Made by a program: the position numbers and the translations under genes
Assembly: GCA_019358935.1 (NCBI GenBank)
Contig: JAHHIK010000015.1
Span: forward strand, 1 to 64,000
Direction: 5' to 3'
Length of the DNA: 64,000 bases
DNA from: Tolypothrix carrinoi HA7290-LM1
GTDB lineage: Bacteria > Cyanobacteriota > Cyanobacteriia > Cyanobacteriales > Nostocaceae
Notes under the pieces: model-generated
What the model was told of the DNA's origin: nothing
The model's input: the letters and a program-made list of their open reading frames with translations, nothing else
Databases searched by the model: none
Shown: in pieces, positions 28,526-38,104 of the stretch
Numbering within the stretch: position 1 is the first letter of the stretch
How the letters are laid out: every line of letters starts with the position of its first letter

Positions 28526-30838
28526 ATGTTTAATTTGTCTAGGATAAGTTGGCGTTTACCTGTTAATCGTTATTGGCGGCATTTGCAGTATAAGCCTTTA
28601 ATCGAAGTGGAAGATTCAATTACCTTACGGGTGCTGGTGCTAGCTTTGGTAATTGTGGGAATTTTGGCGACGGATATTGCGGCTCAAACCAAATTTAGTT
28701 TTTGGGCAATTCCTCTAAGCGTGGTGGGTGCGATTTGGAGTTATTACCGTCGTCGAGATGCTAATGTATCGGTTAAGTTTTGTATCGCCATTGGAATGTT
28801 AGTAGCACTTGGTGCTTTCTTAGGGCGATTGCTGGGCGAGTTGAATGATACACGGCTGGGTTTAGCTGAATTACTAATTCAATTACAAGTCCTTCACAGT
28901 TTTGATATGCCTCGCCGCAAGGATTTGGGGTATTCAATTGCGATAGGGCTGATTTTGCTTGGTGTGGCAGCGACGCTAAGTCAAACTTTTGAGTTTGCGC
29001 CAATGTTGATGTTGTTTTTAGCGATCGCCCTACCAACTTTAGTTATAGATTACCGTTCTCGCCTCGGCTTAGAAAAGGAAAAAGGTAAAAGCGAGAAGCT
29101 AAACTCCAGAAAATTATCTTCTCTTTTACCCTTTTACTTTTTACTTTTTACTTTAATTGTCGGGCTGGGATTGGTAATTTTTGCTGTTATGCCCCGCTTT
29201 CCTGGCTATCAACTGCGGACTTTCCCTGTAAGTTCTCCTATCGAAGTTAAAGGCGGTTTTACAGGACGCAGTATCATCAATCCCGGTTATGTGCGCCAAG
29301 GTAATGCCAATAATCAAGGCAATAATAGCAACGGCACGACGGAAAATAAAAACGGCAAACCGGGGCAATTAGATAATACGTTTTATTACGGTTTTAATAG
29401 CCAGATTAACCAAAACCTGCGGGGAGAAATGAAACCCAAAGTAGTGATGCGGGTGCGATCGCAAGCCGAAGGTTTTTGGCGTGTGTTGGCGTTCGATCGC
29501 TATACGGGTAAGGGATGGGAGATTTCCCGCAATGAACAAGTTCTTACCGTCAAGCGATCGCCTTGGTCTTACCAAATTTTTCTCAACCCCCCAGCAATAG
29601 ATACGCCAACTAAAGAAATAGTACAAACTTACACTCTGGTGTCGGATTTGCCTAACTTGATTCCGGCTATGAGTTATCCGAAGGAAGTATACTTTCCGAC
29701 ATCGGTGATAGCTGTTGATAAAGAAGGTTCTTTGCGATCGCCTGTGGGATTATCATCAGACCTGACTTATACGATAATTTCCGATGTACCATTACGCGAT
29801 CGCACTTCTTTAGGAAAAGCTTCAACTAACTATCCCCAAAATATTAAAAATTACTATCTACAAATTCCCCCAGAAATTGCCGAAAAAGTCCGACAACGCA
29901 CCGAAGAAATTTTAGCTAATTACAACCGCGAACGAGTCGGAAAGTCAGAAAAATTTCTTGATTCGGCTTACGAAAAGGCACTTTATTTAGCTCAATATCT
30001 CAAGCAAAATTATTCTATTCCCGAAAATCCCTTAGGACTGCCTTATTTAGGTGATAAAGAAGACTTGGTAGAAACCTTTTTGTTTAAGCAAAAAGGAGGC
30101 TATCCAGACCACTTTTCCACAGTTTTGACGGTGATGCTGCGTTCTATTGGCATTCCAGCGCGGTTGGTGGCAGGATTTAGTTCCGGAGAGTTTAATCCAT
30201 TTACGGGGATGTATGTTGTTCGCAACACCGATGCTTATGCAATGACAGAGGTGTATTTCCCCAAACATGGTTGGTTTACGTTTGATCCAATTCCCAATCA
30301 TCCGCTGATTCCACCATCGATAGAAGAGACTCAGACTTTTAGCGTGTTGCGTCAATTTTGGAATTGGGTTGCAGGCTGGTTGCCCTCGCCGGTGACAGGT
30401 TTATTAAATAATGTATTTGGGGCAATATTTAGTTGGATTGCTAGAGCGATCGCTCAATTTTTTGCTTTATTTTCTCAAGGTTGGCTTGGTGTATTGACAG
30501 GCTTAATTTTAGCAACTACAACGGCTTTTTTAAGTTGGTTGGGTTGGGTACAGTTAAGAGAATCATTGAAGCGTCGTACTTTCAGAAAATTGCCACCAAT
30601 GGAAAGCCTTTATCAACAAATGCTGCAAACTTTAGCCGAAAAAGGTTTTAGCAAGCACCCAGCACAAACACCTTTAGAATATGCTAGCGTGTCATACCAG
30701 CATCATTCAGAAGCAACGGCTGAGGTAATAGATGAAATTTGCCAAGCATATAATAGCTGGCGTTATGGTGGTCACAATCCTAATTTGAATCGACTGCGAC
30801 AAAGATGGCAAGAAATGAAAAAGGCTGCTAAAAGTTGA
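28526..30838 (+). CDS. Membrane transglutaminase-like protein (DUF3488 / TGc / DUF4129)
   Basis: N-terminal TM block, FWRVLAFDRY, LRSIGIPARLVAGF, GWFTFDP, QTPLEY. Confidence 0.88.
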   Translation: MFNLSRISWRLPVNRYWRHLQYKPLIEVEDSITLRVLVLALVIVGILATDIAAQTKFSFWAIPLSVVGAIWSYYRRRDANVSVKFCIAIGMLVALGAFLGRLLGELNDTRLGLAELLIQLQVLHSFDMPRRKDLGYSIAIGLILLGVAATLSQTFEFAPMLMLFLAIALPTLVIDYRSRLGLEKEKGKSEKLNSRKLSSLLPFYFLLFTLIVGLGLVIFAVMPRFPGYQLRTFPVSSPIEVKGGFTGRSIINPGYVRQGNANNQGNNSNGTTENKNGKPGQLDNTFYYGFNSQINQNLRGEMKPKVVMRVRSQAEGFWRVLAFDRYTGKGWEISRNEQVLTVKRSPWSYQIFLNPPAIDTPTKEIVQTYTLVSDLPNLIPAMSYPKEVYFPTSVIAVDKEGSLRSPVGLSSDLTYTIISDVPLRDRTSLGKASTNYPQNIKNYYLQIPPEIAEKVRQRTEEILANYNRERVGKSEKFLDSAYEKALYLAQYLKQNYSIPENPLGLPYLGDKEDLVETFLFKQKGGYPDHFSTVLTVMLRSIGIPARLVAGFSSGEFNPFTGMYVVRNTDAYAMTEVYFPKHGWFTFDPIPNHPLIPPSIEETQTFSVLRQFWNWVAGWLPSPVTGLLNNVFGAIFSWIARAIAQFFALFSQGWLGVLTGLILATTTAFLSWLGWVQLRESLKRRTFRKLPPMESLYQQMLQTLAEKGFSKHPAQTPLEYASVSYQHHSEATAEVIDEICQAYNSWRYGGHNPNLNRLRQRWQEMKKAAKS

Positions 30839-30961: not shown

Positions 30962-32395
30962 ATGCGATCGCCGTCAAAATTTCTATCAGAAATCCGTACC
31001 ACTTTGCAATTAACAGTGCCTTTGGGGGGCATTCAACTAGCAGAAGCATCCGTGAGTTTTATCAATAGCGTGATGATGGGATTGTTAGGCATTGAATCCC
31101 TCGCGGCTGGTGCTCTGGGTGTGATCACCTTCCAGACTCTAGTTTTCTTGTGTATGGGGGTTTTAGAAGGAGGCAGTCCCCTAGCGGCTGAAGCCTTTGG
31201 CGCTGGAGACACAGATCGCATTCGCCAACTTTTTGCTCAAGGATTCTGGCTGGTGGTGATGCTATCTTTACCCATGATGTTGCTCACTTGGCATCTAGAC
31301 TCGATTTTACTTTTATTGGGTCAACAAAAAGACACGGTAGCCTTAACTAGCACTTATTTAAAAGCCATTGTTTGGAGTTTTCCAGCAGCGGTAGGTTTCT
31401 TAATCCTCAAGGAGATTGCCACTGCCCTCAATCGTCCCCAACTCATTAGTGCGATCGCCCTGACTAGGATTCCCCTCAATATTATTGCTAACTACCTTTT
31501 AATATTTGGGAATTTAGGCTTACCAAGTTTAGGATTAGCGGGGATTGGTTGGGCTGGCACTTTTGTCTTCTGGGTAAATTTCCTTGCTGCTGCTGCCGTA
31601 CTTGCCTTCCATCCTTCGTTTAAAGAATACAAATTGTTTGGTTCTTTACAGTTTAATCGAGATGTGTTTGGCGAACTTTGGCAAAATGGCTGGCCTCTGG
31701 GATTAGAATATGCCTCTACATTTTTCTTGTTTACCTTGATTGCCTTATTAAGCGGCTATATGGGAACAACCCTATTAGCTGCAAATGAAATTGTCGTGCA
31801 AAGTATAGAATTATCATTGATTGTGCCGATAGCAATCTCTTACGCTGCCATGACGCGAGTGGGACAAATGATGGGTCAGAATGACCCCACTGCTGCAAAG
31901 ATGGCAGGATTTGCCACAATTGCCATCGGTATAGCAACAACTAGTTTAATTGCCGTTGGTTTATTTCTATTTCCAGAGCAGATTGCCACTATCTTTTTAG
32001 ATGCAAGTGAGCCAGATCATGTTCTAGCAATCACATCTGCAATCCCCTTGTTGAGAATTTCAGCACTTTTTCTCATTGCTTTTGGACTTAACATGATTGC
32101 TTTAGGGACGTTGATGGGTATCCAAGATGCTCGCTTACCTTTAGTGATTAACATACTGTTTCAGTGGGGTATTGGGATGACAAGCGGTTACCTGCTTTGC
32201 TTCCATCTCAATTGGGGATCTATCGGCTTGTGGTCAGGGTTAACGATAGGAACTACACTAGCTACACTGTTTTTAATCTATCGTTTTTACCTTTTAACTT
32301 CTGAGATTATCGAATTTAGCGAGGATGGTGAAGGGCTAGACAAAAGTAAAACCGCAGATGAAGATCAAACTCCTGTATTGAAATCATTTTCTTAA
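30962..32395 (+). CDS. MATE family efflux transporter (SxtM/GntT-like)
   Basis: About 12 TM helices, VMMGLLG..LAAGALG, LGLAGIGWA, TRVGQ..G; AGGAGG RBS. Confidence 0.88.
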   Translation: MRSPSKFLSEIRTTLQLTVPLGGIQLAEASVSFINSVMMGLLGIESLAAGALGVITFQTLVFLCMGVLEGGSPLAAEAFGAGDTDRIRQLFAQGFWLVVMLSLPMMLLTWHLDSILLLLGQQKDTVALTSTYLKAIVWSFPAAVGFLILKEIATALNRPQLISAIALTRIPLNIIANYLLIFGNLGLPSLGLAGIGWAGTFVFWVNFLAAAAVLAFHPSFKEYKLFGSLQFNRDVFGELWQNGWPLGLEYASTFFLFTLIALLSGYMGTTLLAANEIVVQSIELSLIVPIAISYAAMTRVGQMMGQNDPTAAKMAGFATIAIGIATTSLIAVGLFLFPEQIATIFLDASEPDHVLAITSAIPLLRISALFLIAFGLNMIALGTLMGIQDARLPLVINILFQWGIGMTSGYLLCFHLNWGSIGLWSGLTIGTTLATLFLIYRFYLLTSEIIEFSEDGEGLDKSKTADEDQTPVLKSFS

Positions 32396-32411
32396 TCGCT
32401 ATTAGCATATA

Positions 32412-33284
32412 TCATGCCTCACTGCGTGATAACTTCCTATAGACATCGAATAAGCCGTTTGAGATATCTAGATTCTCTGGACACAAAGTCTCATGTGCCT
32501 CTGGCAGCTTGTACCAAGGAATAGTAGGGTACAGGTGGTGAACATAGTGATAACCGTTGTTATGAGTTAAAAGATTAGCCAGAAAATTAAGGTTCGATCT
32601 CGTCCCGGAGACAGTATGAAAGTGATCGTGTACCTCAGACCAATATACATAACAAGGAAAGCACCATACCAGAGGGACTACCCAGTATAGCAATAAGATA
32701 TCGATATGTCCCGATAGATAGAAGCCAATCACAACAACCAACCAGAATAGGGATACCTTAAAGCCACTTTTGAATGGATGCCAATCCAAATTCTTCAGAT
32801 GAATGTATGCGTCTATTAAAAAGTGATATATGGCAAATCCAATCACAGGTTTAACAAACCAGAGCCAGAACAGATTTTTATCCTCCTTGTATAAACCCAA
32901 CATTTCATAGTACTCAGGGATATAGTCTTCCTCACTCCCCAAACCTTTATGATGGGGAAAATGATGTTTCCGATAGGAGGATATTGTTCTCAACACAGGA
33001 AATCCATAGAGAAACTCTAGCTGTTCATTCCACAATTTGTTTTCAAATAAATTATTGTGTGTTGCTTCGTGTAACAATCCCTCTCCAATGGCAAATTGAA
33101 AGATACCAATCGCCCATACTGAAACTAGATAAACAAATATGTTGTTTATCCAAATACTAAATGCAACAATCAATAAAATTGCCATCCAGTCTCTCAGCAA
33201 TGCTAAGAACGCTCTCAGATCGTTCCGTTCAACAAAGTCAATTGGTTTACTTGGTAATTTTTCTGTAAGATTAGCGTCAGTCAT
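32412..33284 (-). CDS. Membrane di-iron fatty-acid-desaturase-superfamily enzyme
   Basis: His boxes HEATH, HHFPHH, HYVHH plus EVHDH and PTIPWYKLP. Confidence 0.88.
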   Translation of the reverse strand: MTDANLTEKLPSKPIDFVERNDLRAFLALLRDWMAILLIVAFSIWINNIFVYLVSVWAIGIFQFAIGEGLLHEATHNNLFENKLWNEQLEFLYGFPVLRTISSYRKHHFPHHKGLGSEEDYIPEYYEMLGLYKEDKNLFWLWFVKPVIGFAIYHFLIDAYIHLKNLDWHPFKSGFKVSLFWLVVVIGFYLSGHIDILLLYWVVPLVWCFPCYVYWSEVHDHFHTVSGTRSNLNFLANLLTHNNGYHYVHHLYPTIPWYKLPEAHETLCPENLDISNGLFDVYRKLSRSEA

Positions 33285-33333
33285 TTTCTTGATTACGTTA
33301 TTTTTTTGATATTGAATCTAGGTTTATGTTGGA

Positions 33334-34065
33334 CTATTTGCCTTCGACGTACTCACTCATGCAATCTATCACTATCTCCTTGATTGCTGCTTTTGGAGAC
33401 ATTTTTAATAACCATCTGATAGTATTTAAAATGTCCTCTTTTTGAATCATGTCGTGGGATTGATAGGGTGTAGCTGCTTGTTGAGCCATATTCGTATCAA
33501 CCCAACTCGGACAGATAGCCGTGACTTTGATTCCATGCTTGATTAGATCAAAGTGAATAGCTTCAGTTAACCCGAAAAAGGCATATTTAGAAGCACTGTA
33601 TACACCCCAATCCGGTTCAGCACCTTTAGCAGTGATGCACACTAAATTTACTATCTGACCAAACCCTTGCCGTTTCTTGATGGGAACAACAGCTTGGAGA
33701 AAATAAAAACCTGCTTTCAAATTAATTGAGAGGATTCTGTCAAATTCGTCAATTGGTACATCAAGGGTTCCCTCTGTCCACGCTCCTGCATTATTGAAAA
33801 ATAGATCAATACGTCCCCATACCTTGTCAATTTCCGCAACAACTTTATGTACAGAATCGCGCTCTGTAATGTCAATTGCAAACAGTAGTGGTTGTGAGTC
33901 AGGATGCAAATCGAGTGCAGCAATTTCTGAAGCAACAGCTTGCAAATTTTCAGCAGTTCGCGCAACAAGAGCTAGACGAAAACCGTCTTCAATCAACCCA
34001 AGTGCTACTGTTCTCCCAATTCCTCGACTACCACCCGTCACCAATGCAACTTTTTGCTCAATCAT
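33334..34065 (-). CDS. SDR family oxidoreductase
   Basis: TGGSRGIG, NNAG, YSASK, CPSWVDT. Confidence 0.92.
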   Translation of the reverse strand: MIEQKVALVTGGSRGIGRTVALGLIEDGFRLALVARTAENLQAVASEIAALDLHPDSQPLLFAIDITERDSVHKVVAEIDKVWGRIDLFFNNAGAWTEGTLDVPIDEFDRILSINLKAGFYFLQAVVPIKKRQGFGQIVNLVCITAKGAEPDWGVYSASKYAFFGLTEAIHFDLIKHGIKVTAICPSWVDTNMAQQAATPYQSHDMIQKEDILNTIRWLLKMSPKAAIKEIVIDCMSEYVEGK

Positions 34066-34114
34066 TTATCTCTTCCAGCCATAGCTATACTTTTTATCCT
34101 TCTTCTGTCAACTT

Positions 34115-34624
34115 CTAAATAGGCAAATCAAAACAATGTATATCGTCAACTTCATTTAAAAGACTGATTAGTTTTTTCGCTGACTGTAATAAGGCTTCTT
34201 TGGCAGATAACCCAATAATTTCTTCTTGGTTACTAGTTATTAGTTCTACCTCTCCTTCAAATCCTATATACCTATAATCTAAGGTTAATTCATCTCCATA
34301 ATTAATATCATGCAAAGCAAAAAAGAAGCCAAGACATGACAATAGATTGGGATTGGTTGTATGATTAATATAATCTGCATCGTGAGGTGTTTTCCTACAG
34401 TAAAGAAAATAATTTCCACCCCATCTCATACCAGCATTCATGGGAAAATAGTTTTCTGTTTTCAACTCTTCTAGATACTGTTTTTCTAAAACAATATTAT
34501 CGATGGTAAAAGTAGTGATCGGAATAAAAACTATACTTCCTTTCGGTATAAATTCTAAGCTAAATAATCCCTTACCTGCATTAGGTATCCTAGACTCTCT
34601 GATTTCTGCTTTGATGCACAACAT
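34115..34624 (-). CDS. Stand-alone SET-domain methyltransferase
   Basis: GKGLF, YINHTTNPN, GDELTLDY SET motifs; no post-SET cysteines. Confidence 0.85.
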   Translation of the reverse strand: MLCIKAEIRESRIPNAGKGLFSLEFIPKGSIVFIPITTFTIDNIVLEKQYLEELKTENYFPMNAGMRWGGNYFLYCRKTPHDADYINHTTNPNLLSCLGFFFALHDINYGDELTLDYRYIGFEGEVELITSNQEEIIGLSAKEALLQSAKKLISLLNEVDDIHCFDLPI

Positions 34625-34649
34625 AGATTATTTTTATTGATTAATATAT

Positions 34650-35945
34650 CTAAATCATTACTTCAACTAAAGTATCTGGCTTTATTCTCTGAAGATGCCA
34701 GTCGGTAATTTCTTCACCTAGTATCATAATAGGAATACCTGGAGGAACTTGTTTAAAACAACAACAACTTATCATACCTTTAGCTTGCTCAAGTAAAAGC
34801 TTTTTCTTCTTGCCAAAAAAAGCCTCCCTTGGTGAACAGCGTATCACCGGAGTGCGAACCAAAAAATCTTCATCAAACACCTGTCTCTGTTCTTTATCAG
34901 CAATAATTTGATAAATTTCTTCAATAACTTGAGTGACATAGACAAAATCATTATCAGTATTTTGAAATGAAAAAATTAGTAATACTCCTCTTTGATTTGA
35001 ATATTCATAGTCAATGCCACGTTCACCAATTAAGTCACCAATTTCATCACCTGTTGCGCGATCGCTATACATAAAAAACTTTAATGGATCGCTAATTTGA
35101 GAATCATAGGTTAAGACATTTCCCCAATTATCAAGCAGACATCGTAATTCATGGCAGTTGCAAGCAGCCTTTTGAAAAAGCGACTTTCTTTCATCTCCAA
35201 AAGCCAGCCGAATAGCTTCTTCTATACTTAATAAAAGTAGGTTACTCCGTGATGTTGTTTCAAACAGTGATAGTGCTGCGATCGCTTCTGACTCTGTAAT
35301 TCTTGAGGCTTCAGGTAAATGAAGTAATGCTGTTTGCACAAGACTACCTACAAACTTGTGCAGGCTATGAACAACCAAGTCAGATTCTTCAGCCAACGCT
35401 GACAAATTCTCCTCCTCTAAAAAAGGAAAATGAGTGCCATGCGCTTCGTCGATCATGAACTCAATATTTTTAGCTCGGCAGTATTTTGCAATCTTTCCTA
35501 AGTCAGTCGTGATGCCATCATAGCTGGGATGTGTTAAAAAAAGTGCAGTAACTTCTCCTGCTGTTTCTAATGCTTGAATAACTTCTTCATCTGTTGGCAT
35601 GAACGAACGCGACGGAATAAAAAATGGCTCTAATCCTGAGAGGACAAATCCATGAATTATCGACAGGTGACTATTCAGACCAATGGCGATTTTTCGATGT
35701 CTTCTTGCCAGTATGGTACAGGCAATCAAAATTCCTTGGGTGGCTCCTCCTGTGAGAAAAAAGGTATGTTTAGTTTTATATAGCCCAGAAAAATATTTTT
35801 CGACATTATAAAACTTGTCACGGGTAAAGAAAGGTAAATCATAGGCGTAGATGCGATCGTCAAAATATTCAGATTCTCCTCGAATGCCTTGATGAGCAGG
35901 TGTGTGGAGCCGAAGTTTTATTTCTGGGGAATGAGATGCAATCAT
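34650..35945 (-). CDS. Orn/Lys/Arg decarboxylase-family PLP enzyme
   Basis: LHTPAHQG, GATQGI, HLSI, PSYDG, IDEAHG, HSLHK (PLP Lys), TTS, PPGIP. Confidence 0.88.
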   Translation of the reverse strand: MIASHSPEIKLRLHTPAHQGIRGESEYFDDRIYAYDLPFFTRDKFYNVEKYFSGLYKTKHTFFLTGGATQGILIACTILARRHRKIAIGLNSHLSIIHGFVLSGLEPFFIPSRSFMPTDEEVIQALETAGEVTALFLTHPSYDGITTDLGKIAKYCRAKNIEFMIDEAHGTHFPFLEEENLSALAEESDLVVHSLHKFVGSLVQTALLHLPEASRITESEAIAALSLFETTSRSNLLLLSIEEAIRLAFGDERKSLFQKAACNCHELRCLLDNWGNVLTYDSQISDPLKFFMYSDRATGDEIGDLIGERGIDYEYSNQRGVLLIFSFQNTDNDFVYVTQVIEEIYQIIADKEQRQVFDEDFLVRTPVIRCSPREAFFGKKKKLLLEQAKGMISCCCFKQVPPGIPIMILGEEITDWHLQRIKPDTLVEVMI

Positions 35946-36333
35946 CAGCCGTCACTGAGTTTGGATTAACTACTAAATAATCACAAGCTTTGGCTAAAAG
36001 ATTAACACTTGGGGTTGCATCACCAGCAAAACCTCCAATTTCCGCACGGACTCCTGTTGGGACAATACTTACAGCAACAAAAGGTTTAGCTGAAGAAATT
36101 TGACGATGGCGAATATCTAATAAAGAAGACCAGACAGGCTTTCTATCTGTTTCCAGAAAACTGCATTCAAACACCAACTTCTGTTGGCTCCCTGCGGTCA
36201 AGATGATTCGGATAGGTGTTCCAGGTAGTCCCGTTTCTCCAATTAGATGAGCAATTTCACTCCAAATTTTTTGCTTTGGTGGGCATTCAATTTCAAAATC
36301 TTTTGTAAAAACTTGTGACACAATTAAACTCAC
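35869..36333 (-). pseudogene. DUF3326-family protein, N-terminal fragment
   Basis: IVPTGVRAEIGGFAGDATP...CDYLVVNPN motif; family-like sequence stops near 35945 and the frame runs out inside the decarboxylase gene. Confidence 0.65.
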
Positions 36334-37075: not shown

Positions 37076-37342
37076 ATGGACATTCAGTTAATCAACATCG
37101 GTTTTGGCAATATCGTGTCTGCCAATCGAGTAGTTGCTATTGTCAGTCCAGAGTCTGCCCCGATTAAGCGGATTATTACTGACGCAAGAGACAGAGGTCA
37201 ACTGATTGACGCGACTTATGGTCGTCGCACTAGAGCTGTAATTATCACTGATTCCAGCCATGTGATTCTCTCAGCGATTCAACCGGAAACGGTAGCAAAT
37301 CGCTTTGTAGTTTCCCGCGAGCATCAAGTTGTAGATAATTGA
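37076..37342 (+). CDS. remA: RemA/DUF370 family protein
   Basis: [28 protein letters not shown]; upstream of gmk. Confidence 0.93.
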
Positions 37343-37504
37343 TTGGGGGTGGGTTGAAAGCCCCACCCCTATTTGCGCCATATCAGCAGTAATATGTGAA
37401 TTAGACAAGTTTTCTGTCACCCATGCTACCAATTTATTAGTCTATACTCGCTCTCGCGAATGACTAATGAATAATGTCTATCGATTAATTCACAAGTTGA
37501 GCGG

Positions 37505-38104
37505 ATGATGCAAGTTTTATCCATCCAGAATGGTGCTACTACCAAAGAATGCCCCCCTCTGGGCAGGCTGATTGTTTTAACAGGTCCCAGTGGTGTCGGC
37601 AAAGGCACACTCATGCGATCGCTTCTACAGCGTTATCCGGAGCTATACTATTCAGTATCCGTGACGACTCGTTCTCCCCGCCCTGGAGAAATCGACGGCA
37701 AAAATTATTACTTTATTAGCCGTAACAAATTTGAACAATTGGTTGCTCAAGGTGAATTCCTAGAGTGGGCAGAATTTGCGGGTAACTATTACGGCACTCC
37801 TCGTGAAGCGGTACTTAACCAAATTCGCGCCGGTAAGACGGTTGTGCTAGAAATTGAGTTGGAAGGGGCACGACAAATCCGCGCTTCTTTCCCTAGCGCC
37901 CTCAGCATCTTTATTCTACCGCCTTCATTTGAAGAATTAGAGCAACGGATACGCAATCGCGGACAGGATTCAGAAGAAGCGATCGCTCGTCGTCTGCAAT
38001 GTGCCCAAGAAGAAATTAAAGCCGCTGAAGAATTTGATATTCAAATCGTGAATGACGATTTGGAGACCGCTGTAAATGCGATCGCTGCTGCTTTATTTGG
38101 TTAA
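37505..38104 (+). CDS. gmk: Guanylate kinase
   Basis: [27 protein letters not shown]. Confidence 0.96.

Follow-up and report, generated by a model that had tools for sequence, protein, structure and literature searches.

Does the compact gene block at positions 30,962 to 36,333 of a 64,000-nucleotide (nt) stretch of the Tolypothrix carrinoi HA7290-LM1 genome (contig JAHHIK010000015.1, positions 1 to 64,000, forward strand; hereafter the window) encode a working pathway, and for what kind of product? On the minus strand the block holds a short reading frame of the DUF3326 family, followed by genes for a pyridoxal 5′-phosphate (PLP) decarboxylase, a SET-domain methyltransferase, a short-chain dehydrogenase/reductase (SDR) and a desaturase-like enzyme with histidine (His) boxes, all converging on a MATE transporter gene. 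An earlier interpretation of the letters without database searches, here called the sequence-only reading, had proposed a cluster free of nonribosomal peptide synthetases (NRPS) and polyketide synthases (PKS) for an exported amine. It is reasonably likely, in our judgement, that the window carries a recently broken copy of a cyanobacterial cluster of modular build, and that a modified polyamine is the likely product made and exported by its intact form.

A deletion has removed the core of the window copy

In blastn alignments the window lacked 1,314 nt in comparison with G001, or 1,307 nt in comparison with G006, between position 35947 in the DUF3326 gene and position 35946 in the decarboxylase gene, and outside this junction it was colinear with both genomes at 86–96% identity. 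Some 70% of the DUF3326 gene went with this segment, together with the 5′ end of the decarboxylase gene and the intergenic region that has a Shine-Dalgarno-like element. About 129 codons remain of a gene that encodes 438–442 amino acids (aa) in these relatives; this stump is 85% identical to residues 2–128 of the 438-aa G006 protein, and 26 of the 37 columns that are invariant among 65 aligned family members fall in the deleted part. The decarboxylase is 16 N-terminal residues shorter than that of G001, a conserved S-T/A-Y stretch being among the residues lost. Past the junction the DUF3326 open reading frame (ORF) continues to a stop at 35869, its last 25 residues being the decarboxylase gene read out of frame, and the 77-nt overlap of the two ORFs exists because the deletion fused two genes. 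The DUF3326 fragment of the sequence-only reading is thus a real ORF, though not an incidental one: a 1.3 kb deletion left it as the stump of a core gene.

The deleted coding sequence of DUF3326 was not found at any other place in the window's genome (G000), where only the housekeeping paralogue matched (25%), and no repeat flanked the deleted segment in G001 or G006 among the repeats listed. An independently assembled contig of sequencing run X1 crossed the junction unchanged and without a loose end, which disfavours an assembly artefact, although X1 may be the source run of this genome. Run X2 had 1,320 letters at the joint, and run X3 diverged there into other sequence.

The other cluster genes in the window had no stops or frameshifts. 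Pairwise ratios of nonsynonymous to synonymous substitution rates (dN/dS) were 0.16–0.43 across the cluster genes versus 0.15–0.21 for the flanking core genes, which, as judged from substitution patterns, shows past purifying selection. The lineage-specific changes in the stump were one nonsynonymous and six synonymous. Given intact remaining genes, low dN/dS and the 1:6 ratio in the stump, the deletion is therefore probably recent, and it possibly arose in culture. That the window copy is broken is highly probable, and the end product is probably not made in this strain, since a core step appears to have been lost.

Long DUF3326 proteins and their decarboxylase partners

DUF3326 matches were present in 397 of the 401 cyanobacterial genomes, nearly all of them in a short form (ca. 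354 aa) that lacks the ca. 80-aa N-terminal extension of the long form. The long form (435–440 aa) was found in seven of the 401 genomes, not counting the stump of the window, and in 23 of 301 genomes of the window's family (Nostocaceae), the window's genome included and G004 excluded, as the DUF3326 match of the latter (36%) branches apart. In quick trees without bootstrap, the cyanobacterial long forms made up one branch apart from the housekeeping form (SH-like approximate likelihood ratio test, SH-aLRT, 99), and the cluster decarboxylases were likewise set apart, in a clade that did not include their housekeeping paralogue of cyanobacteria (SH-aLRT 97–100). The intact G006 orthologue matched PF11805 at 230 bits, and named sources of close long-form proteins were Cylindrospermopsis/Raphidiopsis, Gloeotrichia, Anabaena, Aetokthonos and Okeania.

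A fold-type-I decarboxylase gene lay at most 500 nt downstream of the long DUF3326 gene in 20 of 25 cyanobacterial genome loci. G012 had a type III decarboxylase gene at 1.2 kb and a type I gene at 5.3 kb; a gene resembling trimethyllysine or butyrobetaine dioxygenases directly followed DUF3326 in place of the decarboxylase in G529 and G550; the G644 locus stopped at a contig edge; and the G640 gene was interrupted by a transposase-like gene. Among the best 28 of 80 metagenome loci, some of which duplicate the genome set, 20 had the type I decarboxylase. More distant loci (31–41% identity) had a type III decarboxylase neighbour in nine cases and neighbours of the S-adenosylmethionine decarboxylase (AdoMetDC) and phosphatidylserine-decarboxylase types in one case each, and all four type III partners that were tested scored best with the carboxynorspermidine decarboxylase model (156–291 bits, below the cut-off of 409). 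Because the fold of the partner differs between near and distant loci, the conserved feature is the function of decarboxylation, supplied by unrelated folds. Conversely, all five strong decarboxylase matches besides that of the window were located in clusters with a long DUF3326 gene. As judged from gene neighbourhoods, the long DUF3326 is the invariant core of the cluster family.

Both Pfam families of this pair also have housekeeping members in cyanobacteria, a DUF3326 protein of ca. 354 aa and a SpeA/YaaO-like homologue of the aspartate aminotransferase (AAT) fold. These belong to clades separate from the cluster versions and are encoded on different contigs in G000 (C54 and C119). On C54 a small ferredoxin-like gene immediately precedes the short DUF3326 gene (354 aa; L017:3404-5370). 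The separately branching DUF3326 of G004 represents a third type of 417 aa, which adjoins an EamA transporter and a polysaccharide pyruvyl transferase (L166:5787-9398). At another locus (L122:9386-14132) a distant DUF3326 gene is followed by a gene for a protein of 889 aa that ends in a fatty-acid-desaturase domain, so that DUF3326 and a desaturase-like protein are paired there for a second time.

The cassette and its remains in related genomes

The site between the transglutaminase-like gene (tgl, or tgpA) and remA was compared in 11 genomes of the genus, all but G005 and G007 allowing a call, and it held the cassette or remains of it in five. The cassette was complete only in G006. In G001 the desaturase gene was missing at the site; G002 had retained the desaturase gene and 48 codons of DUF3326; and G009 had the MATE gene, a DUF3109 gene and a SET gene with a stop codon. 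The site was empty in G008, contained no cassette and a partial tgl in G003, and was occupied in G004 and in G010 by genes unrelated to the cassette. In G551, of another genus and beside other core genes, the same order recurred, DUF3326, decarboxylase, SET, SDR, half of a desaturase and a convergent MATE gene. These genes thus travel together, in full in G006 and with the halved desaturase in G551, which supports the idea of a biosynthetic cassette for an exported amine. The convergence of MATE and desaturase genes is natural, as it was also seen on an air-metagenome contig. The nearest named relatives of the decarboxylase came from Cylindrospermum and Cronbergia.

Three genomes of another genus contained remnants consisting of SET, desaturase, a 49-codon DUF3326 stump and a scrap of MATE (L178:7659-9560, L179:6666-9006 and L180:8245-8790), which shows repeated decay of the cluster family.

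A gene of 174–192 aa with a weak DUF1415 match (E-value 0.001–0.016) adjoined the MATE gene in several clusters (L022:13316-13894, L021:12407-12985 and L019:20277-20801); the window's genome had no such gene. Between this gene and MATE, G006 had a tandem duplication of 35 nt.

Gene content and composition of the window block

All five minus-strand ORFs and the plus-strand MATE gene were present where the sequence-only reading had placed them, and Pfam assigned all six as well as the flanking transglutaminase-like and remA–gmk genes (Table 1). The tight spacing was also confirmed, with gaps of 25, 49 and 49 nt within the operon and 16 nt between the convergent MATE and desaturase stops. The MATE protein scored 204 bits with TIGR00797, above the cut-off of 147.

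Table 1. Features of the window block and its flanks.
Feature	Position	Strand	Evidence or remark
TgpA_N/transglutaminase/DUF4129 core gene (left flank)	28526..30838	+	borders the variable-content site
MATE efflux transporter, convergent on the operon	30962..32395	+	Pfam MatE
His-box membrane di-iron desaturase/hydroxylase-like enzyme	32412..33284	-	Pfam FA_desaturase; three His boxes in sequence
SDR	33334..34065	-	Pfam adh_short
Stand-alone SET-domain S-adenosylmethionine (SAM)-dependent methyltransferase (predicted)	34115..34624	-	Pfam SET, E 2.6e-10
Fold-type-I (ancestral AAT-fold) PLP decarboxylase	34650..35945	-	Pfam OKR_DC_1, 83 bits vs cut-off 27
Deletion junction	35946..35947	.	blastn and junction sequences
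DUF3326 5′ stump (ca. 129 codons, long form)	35947..36333	-	PF11805 profile positions 2-44 of 337
Core genes remA and gmk (right flank)	37076..38104	+	

The host genome is 7.96 Mb with a GC percentage of 42.3. The block, at 39.2%, falls on the 9th percentile of 2,879 equal-sized windows, and its minus-strand genes, at 37.9%, on the 4.5th percentile of 3,707. The AT-richness pointed out earlier is therefore real with respect to the genome mean but modest: GC at third codon positions (GC3) was low for the SET, decarboxylase and DUF3326 stump genes (3rd–7th percentile of 2,519 long ORFs) and ordinary for MATE and desaturase. A promoter and terminator scan yielded no more than chance would (14 where 18.2 were expected, and 7 where 4.7 were expected), and PADLOC 2.0 anti-phage defence models gave no matches for the six proteins.

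In the decarboxylase, the DEAH and S-x-H-K motifs were invariant, and D182, H185, H212 and K213 were kept in 27 sequences. The SET protein had intact SAM-binding and catalytic motifs in the alignment and was placed in ESM Atlas SET clusters at 0.97, and its PDB matches were found only at E-values of 0.23–0.78. Close SET homologues were present in 10 of the 301 family genomes, at 11 places, six of which were beside a long DUF3326 gene or the stump of the window and several others beside remnants. The SDR had close homologues in five of the 301 genomes, all five located beside a long DUF3326 gene or its stump and all five having Cys at the usual catalytic Ser position. Homologues of the desaturase, for which no PDB match was obtained at E-values up to 1, occurred in 24 of the 301 genomes and mostly in other contexts. 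By this distribution, the SDR appears tied to the DUF3326 cluster family and SET less so, and the desaturase would be a roaming tailoring gene.

A second accessory cassette was present in the same genome (G000:C64, L016:9150-13612), with a SET paralogue (70% to that of the window), a MATE gene (41%) and a NodU/CmcH-type carbamoyltransferase gene, no DUF3326 gene nearby, and flanking genes that look like ndhF and ndhD; its substrate could be an amine of the same kind. At L198 and L199 a different SET gene was accompanied by a desaturase homologue (60–62%) and an MFS transporter, with no DUF3326 gene within the 3.8 kb fetched.

Tailoring genes in sister clusters

A MATE gene was located at most 9 kb from DUF3326 in 12 of the 25 genome loci, the other transporters being of the EamA or SSF families. 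Around the core, the sister clusters carried NRPS genes of adenylation–thiolation–condensation (A-T-C) architecture, with a terminal condensation domain, together with genes for a methyltransferase and a DUF3109 protein, a PapA5-like acyltransferase, an amidino-modifying enzyme, PhyH, TauD and proline-hydroxylase-like oxygenases, CmcI-like and other methyltransferases, GNAT acetyltransferases, a sulfotransferase, a flavin amine oxidase and aldolases. As NRPS genes were found in five of the 25 family loci, the description NRPS/PKS-free holds for the window copy and not for the family.

A terminal condensation domain implies a free amine as nucleophile, as for VibH. The HHxxxDG pattern was intact in L019 and read H-Y in L055, and L062 gave no match to the pattern used. 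The loci L019:9911-19994, L020, L153 and L055 each combined one or two decarboxylases with the A-T-C NRPS, a class I methyltransferase, a DUF3109-like protein and MATE, and this variant is a candidate for the synthesis of aminoacyl-polyamine amides.

Two further variants departed more from the window. The loci L162:6117-15560 (G529), L063 and L158 had no decarboxylase, DUF3326 being followed by trimethyllysine- and butyrobetaine-dioxygenase-like genes, with a threonine-aldolase–methyltransferase fusion in addition in G529, an arrangement that resembles the logic of the carnitine pathway. The G012 locus (L023:2828-15631) was expanded and partly frameshifted, and it contained genes for an amidino-modifying enzyme, type III and type I decarboxylases, a PapA5-like acyltransferase, three DUF3109-like proteins and two MATE transporters.

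Proposed pathway and comparison with known systems

For the intact copies, in which a polyamine-type scaffold is probable, we infer the substrate, the product and each chemical step as follows. The long DUF3326 protein would couple a basic amino acid (Lys or Orn) with a diamine such as cadaverine or putrescine, yielding an N-alkylated amino acid (a carboxy-polyamine), and would thus be the counterpart of the carboxyspermidine dehydrogenase of the spermidine pathway. Loss of CO2 from this intermediate, catalysed by the dedicated PLP decarboxylase, would leave a triamine, which the desaturase-like di-iron enzyme may hydroxylate or desaturate. The SDR would set the oxidation state, SET would N-methylate the amine (or else a protein), and the resulting cation would leave the cell through MATE. 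Condensation is placed before decarboxylation because of the NspC-like partners and of the loci in which a dioxygenase, and in G529 an aldolase too, replaces the decarboxylase; a dioxygenase or threonine-aldolase-like enzyme in that place fits a DUF3326 product that would still carry its alpha-amino-acid end. The opposite order of the sequence-only reading, with decarboxylation first, found no support, as DUF3326 is the invariant core of the family and is destroyed in the window copy.

The nearest characterised system is the pavABC cluster of Burkholderia sensu lato. According to its description (bioRxiv 10.64898/2026.06.12.731819), PavB (a DUF3326 protein) and PavA (a Rieske protein with a decarboxylase domain) are both required for N-(5-aminopentyl)pentane-1,5-diamine, in which two C5 amines are joined, and for the hydroxylated compounds derived from it, the last of which is pavettamine. 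Genetic evidence on a DUF3326 protein comes from PavB alone. Lysine, in the authors' proposal, is decarboxylated and condensed with cadaverine, in an order that they leave open. They describe the cluster as horizontally mobile, one natural copy being a pseudogene, and their homologue search demanded all three genes (cblaster, at least 50% identity); the text searched makes no mention of cyanobacteria. The two systems share the pairing of a DUF3326 gene with a basic-amino-acid decarboxylase domain, the independence from NRPS and PKS, horizontal mobility and the occurrence of a broken natural copy, and pav, too, has oxygenases. They differ in that PavC is a JmjC/cupin hydroxylase, which has no equivalent in the window cluster, other 2-oxoglutarate oxygenases being present in the sister clusters, and in that tailoring in the window is by SET, SDR and His-box desaturase, with MATE in addition. 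By analogy, the cluster is thus one that would work like pavABC without being a member of it.

The carboxy(nor)spermidine pathway (CASDH/CASDC, NspC) offers the same combination of a condensing enzyme and a decarboxylase, and NspC-like partners do occur beside non-cyanobacterial DUF3326 genes. In contrast, the cluster decarboxylase is of fold type I, and CASDH and CASDC make housekeeping polyamines without tailoring or export.

The guanitoxin (gnt) cluster is likewise a cyanobacterial, NRPS-free and amino-acid-derived pathway, with a GntB-like enzyme (a weak match of the hidden Markov model) and MATE. It was rejected as the identity of the block: the GntB model scored 108.5 bits against a cut-off of 380 and GntT 31 bits against 525, which leaves the comparison with guanitoxin and saxitoxin clusters in the sequence-only reading a weak one. 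No other gnt model in NCBIfam (GntC, GntA, GntI, GntJ) matched the seven window proteins scanned, the remaining window ORFs being unscanned. As summarised in PMC12371840, the gnt pathway has neither DUF3326 nor a decarboxylase, and GntB is termed an alpha-ketoglutarate enzyme, although its NCBIfam model matches the His-box family of the window.

Weighing of alternative explanations

Several observations weigh against a broken polyamine cluster. The sole run that holds the deletion, X1, may be the source of the genome itself. PavB, although placed in the same family as the cluster DUF3326 proteins, was neither returned by a plasmid search nor among the 120 listed profile-search matches, and PavA is a fusion of a Rieske protein with a type III decarboxylase, whereas the decarboxylase of the window is a stand-alone fold-type-I enzyme with no Rieske protein in the cluster. 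An AlphaFold model of the intact G006 DUF3326 protein (predicted local distance difference test, pLDDT, 88; predicted template modelling score, pTM, 0.91) had no clear structural relative (VIA-align best Z 8.8, for generic Rossmann-like domains; Foldseek best E-value 7.6e-4, template modelling score, TM, 0.18), and because the matches were only generic Rossmann-like ones, the fold does not support condensation chemistry. Comparison with the saccharopine reductase fold gave values within the background (Z 7.8, root-mean-square deviation 7.7, 138 aligned), no PDB sequence matched the DUF3326 profile below an E-value of 0.26, and ESM Atlas returned no usable match outside PF11805. Invariant residues formed a Gly-rich loop (P88–D101) and a set of E268, H273, H285 and E311, which could bind a nucleotide and a metal. 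The best PDB match of the decarboxylase was 2x3l, a Staphylococcus aureus protein of the Orn/Lys/Arg decarboxylase family. In PMC8503589, ancestral fold-type-I homologues in cyanobacteria and YaaO are called not polyamine-related, and the substrate specificity of ancestral AAT-fold decarboxylases is considered not predictable. Finally, SET and desaturase genes were often located away from DUF3326, and no SET protein acting on a small molecule was found in the literature search.

Could the window copy nevertheless be a working, simpler pathway without DUF3326, in which free Lys, Orn or Arg is decarboxylated at the outset and the resulting diamine is tailored by the SET, SDR and desaturase enzymes? 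The decarboxylase does keep an in-frame ATG and all PLP motifs, the genes for SET, SDR, desaturase and MATE are unbroken, and gene order is flexible, as G012 keeps DUF3326 and decarboxylase without adjacency. We consider this unlikely, given the constancy of the DUF3326 core and of its association with the five strong decarboxylase matches, the concomitant loss of the native decarboxylase start, conserved N-terminal stretch and Shine-Dalgarno-like element, and the further decay to lone genes in other lineages. The retained genes might instead protect against the compound in a non-producing, resistant form, the synthase having been lost; accordingly, 5′ stumps of DUF3326 lie beside intact SET and/or desaturase genes in G000, G002 and G446, and SET occurs with desaturase or alone in G516 and G488. 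Such selective retention is rather improbable, since desaturase (G001, G551) and SET (stop codon, G009) are lost as well, as in ordinary stochastic decay, and nonsynonymous to synonymous changes on the G000 branch (9:8 in SET, 14:11 in SDR, 28:22 in MATE) reveal no special constraint.

We give equally little credence to modification of a macromolecule, in which DUF3326 would transfer an aminoalkyl group to a protein lysine in the manner of deoxyhypusine synthase, with the YaaO-like decarboxylase, SDR and SET assisting, comparable to the 5-aminopentanol of EF-P. SET domains are indeed protein-lysine methyltransferases, the EF-P ketone is reduced by an SDR, YmfI, and the 2x3l match of the decarboxylase agrees with this scheme. 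YaaO, of the same decarboxylase class, acts in EF-P modification according to PMC8503589. Yet the core is accompanied by MATE, EamA or SSF transporters, NRPS and acyltransferases, deoxyhypusine synthase ranked only 47th in the DUF3326 fold search (E-value 0.01), and PavA and PavB, in the pav description (bioRxiv 10.64898/2026.06.12.731819), make a free triamine. It is very improbable that the genes reached a site of variable content independently and do not form one pathway: the site does differ in content, being empty in G008 and holding other, unrelated genes in G004 and G010, but the recurrence of the same gene order at another site in another genus (G551) largely refutes it, and all five close SDR homologues lie in such clusters.

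Implications

The broken copy of a polyamine-type cluster is of value less in itself than for the cluster family and the intact G006 copy to which it leads; no paper describing this gene set, or a cyanobacterial DUF3326 cluster family, was found in the literature searched, in agreement with the novelty proposed by the sequence-only reading. Tentatively, cyanobacteria, including bloom-forming and benthic genera, may carry overlooked clusters in which a polyamine backbone is assembled by a long DUF3326 protein, as a new amine-condensing class, and a dedicated decarboxylase. Hydroxylation, methylation, acylation or aminoacylation would then turn this backbone into a range of exported counterparts of pavettamine. 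If so, the version related to the window would include a SET-domain enzyme that methylates a small molecule. The near-universal cyanobacterial DUF3326 is named in only three papers of the literature searched, and the long-form clusters are compact pathways for assigning its chemistry. A natural comparison series is available at a single chromosomal site, where copies range from intact through partial to broken. A link to toxicity is by analogy only, as the nearest characterised pathway makes the plant-borne livestock toxin pavettamine; an unrecognised class of cyanobacterial amine metabolites may nonetheless occur in blooms and mats.

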